From a virus: DNA of 64,000 nucleotides. The notes beneath the pieces are model-generated. The model was not told the DNA's origin. It ran no database searches and saw nothing but the letters and a program-made list of their open reading frames with translations. Location: the UHGV virus genome UHGV-0198106. One strand, given 5' to 3'. The translations under genes and the position numbers were made by a program. Each line of letters begins with the position of its first letter. Positions within the stretch are counted from its first letter, which is position 1. Shown one piece after another: positions 21,472 through 22,607 of this stretch.

Positions 21472-22112
21472 GCTGTCAATCCTCGAAGTTCTTCTTTATC
21501 AAAATGCTTCTCTACTACATATTCATACAGATCTTTTAACTCTGCATATCGACGATAAAATGTTCCATGTGACATTCCAATAGTTTTCTGAATATGGTCA
21601 TGAGGTATTCCTAAGAAGATCATAGAGAACATATTGGCTAACTTCTGAGTATCCATCGTATCACTTAAATCTTGGAAGAAATAGAAGATACGAGACTCCA
21701 TGAATGGGTCACCAACAGAGTCTTGTTTATCCATAGCAATCTCTAAAGGACTGTCCACCATATCAGGGGTACGGAACATATCAGCCTCTGGAATTGAGTA
21801 GATACGACGGTCCCCTACAGTCTGCCTGTTTGAACGTATAGACCAGATAATATTCTTGACTCGATAAGTCATATGCTCTTGGTCTTTCTCATCCTCTAGG
21901 ACTCTCTCATCCTGCTTAGCGAAGACAAATCTCCAAGCGTTCAAGAGCACTTCCTGTGCCACATCTTCTGCTTCATGGTAATCTCTGATATCATACATGA
22001 AGAACTTGTGAACTACTTTCCAGTTCGCTCTGTAAAACTCTTCATAGTTTGCGATATACTTAATAGGGATTCCGTGAATGCGGTATCTTGTAGGTGTTGT
22101 CTTCTTCGCCAT
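21468..22112 (-). CDS. sigma-factor-like transcription protein (ECF-like)
   Basis: Region-2-like [17 protein letters not shown] and region-4 HTH-like [22 protein letters not shown]. Confidence 0.55.
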
Positions 22113-22372
22113 TATTCTATTCCACGCTCTTTCAGAGCTTCTAACAATCCATTGTGATTAGCAGCACATTCTGTGTACTGGTCCTGATACCACTCCAACG
22201 TAGTGGCTAGTGCCTTTCCTTGAGCACTCTCTAAAAGAGGTAGGTCAACCCTACATTCAGCTTTTAGGTTTGTTGGTAAGGGCATTGATTGCCTGCTGCT
22301 GTCGCTCATTGAACATGCGGATGTAGTCATCGCTAGCGCAGACATTATAAAAAACTGGTTTAGTTTTCTCAT
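22112..22372 (-). CDS. o-spanin candidate (overlapping reading frame)
   Basis: Starts inside the upstream gene in another frame at ATG 22372 (AAGAGA upstream); [20 protein letters not shown] signal with weak lipobox. Confidence 0.3.
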
Positions 22373-22607
22373 AATGCATCTCTTTATAAACAGTTTCCGT
22401 GTTCTTCTTCCAGTCGGATAAACCAGTAAGAACCCTCTGAGCAACTTCATCAGCTGCCTTACTTCTTTCAATCTCTAACTCTTGTTGATGCTTCTCTTTA
22501 TCAAGATTGTTACTGTCTGTTCGGTATTCATTGAACTTCATACCTCCAAAGAACACGAGAGCAGAGAAGATGATAAAACCTACATTATCACTTAATGTAC
22601 TTTTCAT
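22257..22607 (-). CDS. i-spanin candidate (TM + coiled coil)
   Basis: Track ORF trimmed to ATG 22607 after GGAGA; N-terminal TM VGFIIFSALVFFGG followed by charged coiled-coil region. Confidence 0.4.
   Translation of the reverse strand: MKSTLSDNVGFIIFSALVFFGGMKFNEYRTDSNNLDKEKHQQELEIERSKAADEVAQRVLTGLSDWKKNTETVYKEMHYEKTKPVFYNVCASDDYIRMFNERQQQAINALTNKPKS

Follow-up and report, generated by a model that had tools for sequence, protein, structure and literature searches.

The gene pair considered here lies in a 64,000-nucleotide stretch of DNA (the window) from the genome of a Kuravirus (phiEco32-like) podophage of E. coli, and its closest described counterparts belong to the same group of phages. 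The orthologous phiEco32 pair was entered as an overlapped two-component spanin in the catalogue of Kongari et al. (2018). SpaninDB places the orthologs of phiEco32, NJ01, ECBP2 and KBNP1711 in the class 'ovl' with an overlap of 116 nt, the i-spanins belonging to the family 'JH2' and the o-spanins to the family 'NJ01/ECBP2/KBNP1711/PhiEco32'. In phage Paul, CDSs 036 and 035 are annotated as i-spanin and o-spanin, respectively. The pairs of all five phages share the overlap, the +1 frame, the Shine-Dalgarno motifs and the upstream terminator with the window, and they are likewise located between an SSB-like gene and a sigma-factor block. The protein lengths of 116 and 86 aa are the same as here in phiEco32, NJ01, KBNP1711 and Paul, whereas the ECBP2 i-spanin has 115 aa. 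phiEco32 gp39 and gp38 are 89% and 95% identical to the candidate i-spanin and o-spanin of the window.

Homologous pairs are also found in more distant phages. The i-spanins of Felix O1-like phages (JH2), 9NA/Sashavirus, phiEa21-4 and the P2-like ESSI2 and YenM_324 are approx. 28-42% identical to the window protein and have the motif EKTKPVF.N.C..D.Y...FNE in common. In all of these pairs the two genes overlap by 128-164 nt, the second one being read in the +1 frame. The o-spanin is homologous in every sampled lineage, sharing the C-terminal motif Y..CA..[HY]N.L, with the exception of the Felix O1-like phage mistaenkt (Suspvirus), in which an i-spanin of the same family is combined with an o-spanin lacking detectable similarity. 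This pairing agrees with the separate o-spanin family of Felix O1-like phages in SpaninDB. In Solent, ESSI2_ev040 and YenM_324 (Sashavirus, P2-like), the homologous pairs directly follow the holin and endolysin genes. Ounavirinae homologs of the window i-spanin adjoin a pseT-type polynucleotide kinase.

The plan of lambda Rz/Rz1 would recur in the window pair: one partner is held in the inner membrane in type II orientation and has a helical domain in the periplasm, and the other is a small lipoprotein of the outer membrane whose gene uses the +1 frame of the same DNA. Both systems have periplasmic cysteines that could form disulfides. The mature o-spanin, with 67 aa, 3 Pro and approx. 46% predicted helix (SpaninDB Jpred), differs from lambda Rz1, which has 40 aa, 10 Pro and no structure. 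In contrast to lambda, the second gene is overlapped and not fully embedded, Pfam sequence similarity is absent, Pepcoil finds no coiled coil in the phiEco32 ortholog, and the genes are unlinked from holin and endolysin. A textbook case of spanin genes unlinked from the other lysis genes is T4 pseT.3/pseT.2. These genes resemble the window pair in their location away from holin and endolysin, among early/middle metabolic genes, and in the two periplasmic cysteines of the o-spanin. They differ in their separated architecture and in a PseT.3 protein without periplasmic Cys. The T4 proteins, known here from the catalogue grouping, are placed apart from the family of the window pair in SpaninDB.

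Organisation of the overlapping gene pair

Both open reading frames that a preliminary description had singled out as a possible i-spanin/o-spanin pair proved to be real, with the correction that they lie on the minus strand. These overlapping genes (22607..22257 and 22372..22112) very probably encode an overlapped two-component spanin, and all features of this class that are visible in a sequence are present. Positions in the window are as follows:

3911..4129, plus strand: holin gene, 72 aa, among tail genes 18 kb away (phrog_11161 'holin', E=4e-47)
4160..4651, plus strand: endolysin gene, 163 aa, GH24-type lysozyme (PF00959 Phage_lysozyme, E=4.3e-32; phrog_7 'endolysin', E=6e-46)
21468..22112, minus strand: sigma-like gene (phrog_1740, E=1e-44)
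22110..22114, minus strand: TAATG junction between the o-spanin stop and the sigma-gene start (1-nt overlap)
22112..22372, minus strand: candidate o-spanin gene, ATG at 22372, stop ending at 22112; 86-aa precursor, 67 aa mature
22257..22372, minus strand: dual-coding overlap, 116 nt, o-spanin read +1 with respect to the i-spanin
22313..22324, minus strand: predicted o-spanin lipobox T17-S18-A19-C20 (regex match)
22380..22385, minus strand: weak Shine-Dalgarno-like AAAGAG of the o-spanin, 7 nt from the ATG, present in 12/12 overlapped relatives
22257..22607, minus strand: candidate i-spanin gene, 116 aa, ATG at 22607, stop ending at 22257; ortholog of phiEco32 gp39
22533..22583, minus strand: codons of the predicted i-spanin transmembrane segment, residues ~9-25, VGFIIFSALVFFGGMKF (hydropathy)
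22613..22616, minus strand: Shine-Dalgarno GGAG of the i-spanin, 5 nt from the ATG, listed in SpaninDB
22620..22643, minus strand: intrinsic terminator, separating the SSB-like gene from the i-spanin gene (terminator scan)
22665..23411, minus strand: SSB-like gene upstream of the i-spanin gene, 248 aa, acidic tail ...DDNDSPF

The candidate i-spanin matched phrog_1152 'Rz-like spanin' over residues 2-116 (E=1e-38), which, together with the orthologs in SpaninDB and the annotation in Paul, supports the spanin reading of the preliminary description. It is 89-96% identical to its Kuravirus orthologs and has a dN/dS of 0.14 outside the overlap. The protein contains a single hydrophobic segment (residues 9-25), and the remainder is hydrophilic and charged. 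Kyte-Doolittle hydropathy reaches a maximum of 2.27 over 15 residues from residue 9 and of 1.94 over 17 residues; the Paul record, citing TMpred, gives residues 8-23 as the transmembrane domain. As the N-terminus (K2, D7) carries zero net positive charge, an N-in topology is not clearly signalled. A coiled coil had been described in addition to the transmembrane segment, but SpaninDB, in its Pepcoil table, shows none for the phiEco32 ortholog. An AF2 monomer model of low confidence (pLDDT 63) consists of helices 3-80 and 93-111. The cysteine C90 is invariant. The Shine-Dalgarno sequence is kept among the relatives, with GGGG in LAMP. A GTG at 22631 (124 aa) was rejected as an improbable start, because it sits within the stem of the terminator hairpin.

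The second frame starts at 22372 inside the first gene and passes its stop, just as had been proposed. The 116-nt overlap accommodates the last 38 i-spanin codons in one frame and the o-spanin signal peptide plus N-terminal linker in the other. With a further 145 nt of the o-spanin gene past the i-spanin stop, the pair therefore belongs to the overlapped class. The same geometry is common to 12/12 Kuravirus/Suseptimavirus sequences with the overlapped layout, and every overlapped pair sampled has its o-spanin in the +1 frame. Variable nucleotide sites amount to 23% in the overlap compared to 39-44% in the flanking single-coding parts, and synonymous divergence of the i-frame falls from 0.80 outside to 0.34 within the overlap. 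Since dN/dS of the o-frame is approx. 1 within the overlap, the signal peptide is constrained only in character and not in sequence. In the 47 o-spanin codons beyond the overlap, a dN/dS of 0.12 indicates purifying selection.

The candidate o-spanin is the ortholog of phiEco32 gp38 with the gp38 start corrected. It matched phrog_2425 (E=2.6e-26), and the NJ01 and ECBP2 o-spanin entries in SpaninDB are near-identical to it, with 86 aa and a 19-aa signal. Among the protein-database matches to the o-spanin, truncated calls of 57 aa predominated. Phage genomes were therefore searched by tblastn, which revealed homologs in 184 phage records with identities down to 31%, and a scan of IMG/VR gave 5 loci, most of which repeated GenBank phages. 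At the AAAGAG site, SpaninDB gives AGAG as Shine-Dalgarno sequence in two o-spanin entries and GAG in one. A TTG start at 22471 (119 aa) was rejected, as it is without counterpart in the ECBP2-group relatives, whose second frame opens just 15-18 codons before the ATG. The o-spanin lacks a C-terminal hydrophobic segment, so it does not qualify as a unimolecular spanin of the T1 gp11 type.

C20 is the predicted lipid-modified residue of the o-spanin, and the Ser at +2 predicts outer-membrane sorting. TSAC fits the relaxed lipobox pattern used here, [ILMFTV][^REKD][GAS]C, and its Thr at −3 falls outside the strict consensus [LVI][ASTVI][GAS]C. The earlier caveat of a weak lipobox is correct insofar as Thr is unusual at −3, a position occupied by M or L in close relatives (MSAC, LSAC or MSSC in the other phiEco32-group orthologs). 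It does not hold as an objection, since the Cys is invariant and LAMP also has TSAC; the unrelated phiEa21-4 has TASC. C20 and C69 are invariant in an 11-sequence cross-lineage alignment, and C40 is found in most lineages. The Paul o-spanin, 94% identical to the window protein, received a LipoP SpII score of 18.03. A filter for signal plus lipobox was passed by only three of 1005 ORF starts (45-250 aa, six frames, whole window), the o-spanin included. A basic n-region, a hydrophobic core, the lipobox Cys and S or T at +2 are present at 21/21 loci with an o-spanin homolog, which were drawn from Kuravirus, Suseptimavirus, Sashavirus, Gorganvirus, Ounavirinae, Peduoviridae and one metagenomic contig. 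Even lineages with only 31-37% identity retain the ATG, the hydrophobic core and the lipobox Cys. Neither of the two spanin candidates gave a match in Pfam (E<=0.01) or NCBIfam scans; the pair is a predicted functional analogue of Rz/Rz1 outside the Pfam Rz/Rz1 sequence families.

Genomic context of the pair

The position between an SSB-like and a sigma-like gene given in the preliminary description holds. The terminator preceding the i-spanin gene comprises a 7-bp stem with 5 G-C pairs, a UUCG loop and a U6 tract. Its hairpin is present in both the MFE and the centroid fold, and a terminator is annotated at this place in phages Paul and 4E8. The 248-aa protein encoded upstream is labelled ssDNA-binding protein in some records; this assignment is plausible but not proven, because a Pfam match is absent. 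On the other side, the TAATG junction suggests translational coupling between the o-spanin and sigma genes. In the window, LAMP and NJ01 the sigma gene follows the o-spanin stop directly, whereas a macro-domain (Appr-1-p) gene lies in between in phiEco32 and Paul. Against Pfam Sigma70_r2, the sigma-like gene scored sub-threshold (19.6 bits, cutoff 24). A sigma-70-like match at 22372..22344 inside the pair is not meaningful, the regional match count being below the shuffle mean.

The holin gene adjoins the lysozyme gene, and its homologs are annotated as holins in phiEco32 and many relatives. The distance of approx. 18 kb between the lysozyme gene and the pair, which had been raised as a caveat, is accurate (17.5 kb). 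It does not speak against a spanin, because the T4 spanin genes are likewise unlinked. Two lipoprotein ORFs (50831..51103 and 57573..57902) were considered as alternative spanins and rejected; a C-terminal transmembrane segment and a match to a spanin family are both absent, and a helical type II partner was not seen upstream of either. No other spanin candidate was found within the 64-kb window.

A different arrangement exists in EK010 and PAS59, where the spanin pair is split by an intervening gene, annotated as HNH endonuclease in EK010 and as hypothetical in PAS59. The o-spanins of these phages retain the mature part and carry a different signal peptide with a lipobox (LSAC, LMAC). This new signal peptide appears to have arisen inside the 3′ end of the intervening gene. 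With the overlap gone, the full-length lipoprotein precursor is what gene callers predict (P0001, 88 aa). Insertion of the gene appears to have turned an overlapped pair into a separated one.

Alternative readings of the locus

The genes reside in a replication/transcription block, abut the sigma gene and are 17.5 kb away from the holin-endolysin genes. Such a location would also fit an inner-membrane protein and an outer-membrane lipoprotein that are made in the early/middle phase together with the sigma factor for an envelope function other than lysis, for instance superinfection exclusion or receptor masking. Exclusion roles are known for the phage lipoproteins T5 Llp and Cor, and the window contains further lipoprotein ORFs of unknown role. 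Literature searches for spanins of phiEco32 and Kuravirus yielded no experiment on this spanin family and no lysis phenotype for it. Nevertheless, we consider a non-lysis function very unlikely. Homologs of both proteins occupy the spanin slot after holin and endolysin in Solent, ESSI2_ev040 and YenM_324, which represent three unrelated lineages, and the i-spanin falls within a PHROG family annotated as lysis. Moreover, phages that infect Gram-negative hosts are expected to require a spanin and no alternative one was found in the window, and remoteness from the other lysis genes is a property of the T4 spanin genes as well.

An o-spanin would also be missing if translation of the second frame started at an internal Met (174 nt, 57 aa), giving a soluble protein without signal peptide. 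A CDS of this length is found in the original phiEco32 and LAMP records and in most database clusters, the Shine-Dalgarno sequence before the ATG at 22372 is weak, and dN/dS is close to 1 in the overlapped part of the o-frame. Yet the 57-aa calls can be traced to the known reluctance of gene callers to accept overlaps (Kongari et al. 2018), and the full-length precursor is called where the overlap has been removed. The conservation of ATG, hydrophobic core and lipobox Cys at 21/21 o-spanin loci and the acquisition of a new signal with lipobox in EK010 and PAS59 leave the short product with a minimal probability. Even less probable is a chance open frame without a product. In A+T-rich phage DNA, ORFs in alternative frames are frequent, but no coding candidate other than 22112..22256 lies between the i-spanin and sigma genes, and the low dN/dS in the 47 codons beyond the overlap, the homologs in 184 phage records to 31% identity and the PHROG match (2.6e-26) all argue for a genuine gene. 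From these conservation data, a chance frame can be taken as already refuted.

Proposed mode of action and implications

For an overlapped two-component spanin, the following course of events can be proposed. The 116-aa i-spanin would insert into the inner membrane via its N-terminal transmembrane segment and project a mostly helical domain of approx. 90 residues into the periplasm. The 86-aa o-spanin would be exported, cut by signal peptidase II, lipid-modified at Cys20 and, with Ser at +2, directed to the outer membrane, where it would reside in the inner leaflet. Binding of the periplasmic domains would then form a bridge threaded through the peptidoglycan, which would probably be stabilised by disulfides involving i-spanin Cys90 and o-spanin Cys40/Cys69. 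Periplasmic cysteines are present on both partners (i-spanin C90, o-spanin C69/C40); in the spanin catalogue, at least one is found in 507/528 systems. The complexes would build up harmlessly, probably from the middle phase on, because the genes are part of the replication/transcription block just upstream of the sigma gene. phiEco32 gene 36 was reported to be made in the middle phase (NAR 2025), and genes 38 and 39, judging from their position next to it, would probably follow this timing. Once the lysozyme (4160..4651) has been released by the holin (3911..4129) and the wall has been destroyed, the spanin complexes would be free to act. On the Rz/Rz1 model, they would fuse the outer with the inner membrane, thereby disrupting the former and completing lysis. 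Where the proteins reside, their assembly into a complex, the disulfides, the time of expression and membrane fusion are inferred by analogy to described spanins (Rz/Rz1).

The i-spanin may be built from one long, highly charged helix and a short conserved C-terminal module without a predicted coiled coil. In the o-spanin, prolines are few and part of the chain is helical; its tail (Y..CA..HNGL) and its three cysteines are conserved. Given in addition a possible expression from the middle-gene block and a possible coupling of translation to the phage sigma factor, a mode of action different from that of lambda Rz/Rz1 is conceivable for this widespread spanin family, although we regard it as rather unlikely.

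The spanin pair is an ordinary feature and not a new one, its ortholog already being part of a published spanin catalogue, and the assignment has little import beyond correct annotation. The split pair of EK010 and PAS59 adds a further example of overlapped spanin genes separating, comparable to the one published for T5/Shivani. In most records the o-spanin stands as a truncated 57-aa 'hypothetical protein', a mis-annotation that arises because overlaps are avoided by gene callers and that is worth knowing when Kuravirus genomes proposed for phage therapy are curated. With the candidate pair, the phage would possess a complete lysis set consisting of a holin, a GH24 endolysin and a two-component spanin.

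Two overlapping genes on the minus strand

In a nucleotide comparison, the region 21400..23500 was 94-95% identical to the Escherichia phages LAMP, Bas92-94, Paul, 172-1 and about 90 others, and its close relatives belong to the genus Kuravirus (Gordonclarkvirinae, phiEco32-like podophages). Since the genes between about 19.8 kb and 58.4 kb lie on the minus strand, the spanin pair has to be read on this strand. Translation of the window recovered both ORFs of the overlapped pair proposed in the preliminary description:

22607..22257 (-), gene A, i-spanin candidate: ATG at 22607, stop codon ending at 22257, 116 aa, N-terminus MKSTLSDNVGFIIFSALVFFGGMKF
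22372..22112 (-), gene B, o-spanin candidate: ATG at 22372, stop codon ending at 22112, 86 aa, +1 frame relative to gene A

Gene A is preceded by GGAG at 22616..22613, and residues 9-25 form the sole hydrophobic segment of its product. A transmembrane segment and a coiled coil had been ascribed to this protein; the former stands, and the latter is unsupported because the Pepcoil table of the spanin catalogue lists none for the phiEco32 ortholog (PMC6139136). A GTG at 22631 was rejected as start of gene A, as it falls in the stem of an intrinsic terminator (22643..22626). As described before, gene B starts inside gene A in another frame and passes its stop codon, with an overlap of 116 nt and 145 nt beyond. 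A six-frame filter on all ORF starts of 45-250 aa, which asked for a lipobox within residues 15-28 behind a basic n-region and an uncharged hydrophobic core, let only 3 of 1005 starts in the window pass, gene B among them. The lipobox Cys of its precursor is followed by SMSD. A TTG at 22471 was discarded as start of gene B; it has no counterpart in ECBP2-group relatives, because the gene B frame opens there only 15-18 codons before the ATG.

Gene A matched phrog_1152 'Rz-like spanin' over its full length (E=1e-38) and gene B phrog_2425, function unknown (2.6e-26). A Pfam scan gave no match for either protein, so the pair lies outside the Rz/Rz1 sequence families and would be a functional analogue of lambda Rz/Rz1. 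Lambda Rz1 is Pro-rich, whereas the gene B product contains only 3 prolines. The overlapped two-component spanins in the catalogue of Kongari et al. 2018 include PhiEco32, NJ01, ECBP2 and KBNP1711; the phiEco32 entry is of type 'ovl' on the minus strand (i-spanin 35417..35768, o-spanin 35272..35533, overlap 116), and the NJ01 o-spanin has 86/67/19 residues (precursor/mature/signal) with a Cys right after the signal (PMC6139136). Identity to the phiEco32 proteins is 89% for gene A and 95% for gene B. The Paul record, from the same group as the catalogue, labels both CDSs i-spanin and o-spanin, citing TMpred and LipoP (SpII 18.03). As ortholog of a spanin already catalogued and annotated, the pair is already known; experimental work on this family was not found in the literature searched for phiEco32/Kuravirus spanins.

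Selection and conservation in both frames

Nei-Gojobori rates were determined by region for 12 Kuravirus/Suseptimavirus sequences with the same overlap geometry. Outside the overlap, dN/dS was 0.14 in gene A and 0.12 in gene B, and protein-coding status is clear for both frames where each stands alone. Within the overlap, dN/dS was 0.13 in the A frame and about 1 in the B frame, dS of the A frame decreased from 0.80 outside to 0.34 inside, and 23% of the nucleotide sites were variable versus 39-44% in the flanks. A dominant role of the conserved C-terminal module of A in the overlap would produce such values, with the B signal free to vary as long as it stays basic, then hydrophobic, and ends in a lipobox.

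By tblastn against phage records, gene B homologs were found in 184 and gene A homologs in 448. The basic n-region, hydrophobic core, lipobox and S/T at +2 are kept in 21 loci with a B homolog, which stem from Kuravirus, Suseptimavirus, Sashavirus, Gorganvirus, two Ounavirinae genera, two Peduoviridae genera and one metagenomic contig; their lipoboxes are TSAC, MSAC, MSSC, LSAC, LMAC, ISAC, IAGC, TASC, MSGC and MLGC. The Thr that gene B has at lipobox position -3 also occurs in LAMP and phiEa21-4. Where the genes overlap (116-164 nt), the B homolog is always in the +1 frame. Across lineages, an alignment of 11 sequences shows Cys20, the predicted lipid acceptor, and Cys69 of gene B to be invariant; conserved in gene A are Cys90 and a 15-residue motif.

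In EK010 (L012 1992..3029) and PAS59 (L016 688..1725), the overlapped pair is turned into a separated one through an intervening gene, labelled HNH endonuclease in EK010 and hypothetical in PAS59, parallel to the published case of T5/Shivani. Here, the i-spanin carries a new C-terminal tail ending in NQRQEEAKRVLKSKE. In the o-spanin, the mature part is retained but the signal peptide ahead of it differs; this signal has a canonical lipobox and is read from the 3' end of the intervening gene in another frame (VHIKKKLLSCTGILLAFSLSAC with GGAG ahead of it in EK010, MLTKKKQKSCLVIFLASSLMAC in PAS59). These replacement signals argue strongly that export and lipidation of the gene B product are under selection.

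Position relative to the lysis genes

The pair lies between SSB-like and sigma-like genes and far from the GH24 lysozyme, in agreement with the preliminary description:

4160..4651 (+), lysozyme (GH24 endolysin, PF00959), 17.5 kb from the spanin pair
3911..4129 (+), holin, 72 aa (phrog_11161, 4e-47), immediately upstream of the lysozyme

The sigma-like gene matched phrog_1740 (E=1e-44). The 248-aa gene upstream of gene A encodes an SSB-like acidic C-tail and is labelled ssDNA-binding in some records; a Pfam scan gave no match. Holin and endolysin are set among plus-strand tail and tail-fibre genes and thus belong to another transcription unit than the pair.

Around the sigma gene, window and LAMP (gp33.1) share the same arrangement (21202..21471 and 21468..22112, -). 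Compared to phiEco32 and Paul, the window is missing the macro-domain (Appr-1-p) gene of the o-spanin/sigma interval and the GTP-binding-protein gene near the sigma gene, and the dNMP-kinase gene (21202..21471, -) is reduced to an 89-aa DUF3310-only ORF that aligns with phrog_26149 at positions 89-176 only.

A homologous pair ends the cassette of Salmonella phage Solent (holin, endolysin, holin, i-spanin, o-spanin) and directly follows holin and endolysin in the P2-like ESSI2_ev040 and YenM_324. In the Ounavirinae myophages mistaenkt (L005 1336..2975) and phiEa21-4 (L006 1..2752), the pair is not with the lysis genes but close to a polynucleotide kinase of the pseT type, and the phiEa21-4 pair additionally lies behind a terminator. 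This setting recalls the T4 pseT/pseT.2/pseT.3 neighbourhood. As these pairs lie off the lysis genes, like T4 pseT.3/pseT.2, a location unlinked from lysozyme is normal for spanin genes. The mistaenkt i-spanin is homologous to gene A; its o-spanin has no detectable similarity to gene B.

Of gene B, the original phiEco32 and LAMP records annotate just a 57-aa internal fragment, and most protein-database clusters likewise contain this form. Gene callers are biased against overlaps, as described in the catalogue paper (PMC6139136), and they report a full 88-aa precursor (P0001) once the overlap is absent, as in the EK010/PAS59 layout. The conserved signal, lipobox and frame contradict both translation from an internal Met only and a complete lack of translation. 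That the pair serves a non-lysis envelope function is unlikely given that its homologs in Solent, ESSI2_ev040 and YenM_324 lie in lysis cassettes and that no other spanin candidate was found in the window. The proposed spanin function is supported by phrog_1152, the phiEco32 ortholog in SpaninDB, the Paul annotation, selection, and the conserved signal and lipobox. The other two ORFs that passed the lipoprotein filter are:

50831..51103 (-), predicted lipoprotein, 90 aa, MKKLIILVCLISAFGC then K, no PHROG match
57573..57902 (-), predicted lipoprotein, 109 aa, MKTLIASALLSVAVLSTVGC then S, phrog_4281 (function unknown)

A C-terminal transmembrane segment is absent from both, and a possible role in the envelope or in exclusion is a guess. 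An ORF of 159 aa (57970..58449; phrog_21410, function unknown), whose N-terminal hydrophobic segment looks like a secretion signal, lies 67 nt upstream of the second of these.

Expression and proposed mode of action

22620..22643 (-), strong, conserved intrinsic terminator (UUCG tetraloop, U6 tract) between the SSB-like gene and the i-spanin gene
23479..23471 (-), candidate TAATGTATA element about 60 nt upstream of the SSB-like gene
23543..23551 (+), second TAATGTATA-type element

The terminator is followed by the spanin pair and then the sigma gene, joined by TAATG, in which the gene B stop shares one nucleotide with the sigma-factor ATG. AATGTA is the published core of middle/late promoters dependent on gp36, the phiEco32 sigma-like protein, which is described as a middle-phase protein. 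The TAATGTATA 9-mer contains this core and presumably represents the promoter consensus. With 22 matches in the window versus 20.3 expected from shuffles, it is not enriched, and the site at 23479..23471 therefore is a candidate only. Ahead of the SSB-like gene, an intergenic stretch of about 430 nt (23412..23839) holds several such elements on both strands, including one-mismatch copies at 23461 and 23552; plus-strand genes were not found in this region. We infer that the spanins are made in the middle phase, probably in attenuated amounts.

A low-confidence AF2 model of the i-spanin (pLDDT 63) places residues 3-80 and 93-111 in helices and the conserved Cys in a loop between them, an arrangement compatible with the helix-linker-helix design known from i-spanins. 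According to Jpred values in the catalogue, helix makes up 61% of the periplasmic part of the i-spanin and 46% of the mature o-spanin (PMC6139136). Topology signals, homology, selection and cysteine conservation are established for the pair. Following the Rz/Rz1 paradigm, the 116-aa protein would have its anchor in the inner membrane and the mature 67-aa lipoprotein its own in the outer membrane. The two would bind each other through their periplasmic domains, probably stabilised by disulfides, and the complexes would be restrained by peptidoglycan until holin-released GH24 lysozyme clears the wall, whereupon they would destroy the outer membrane.
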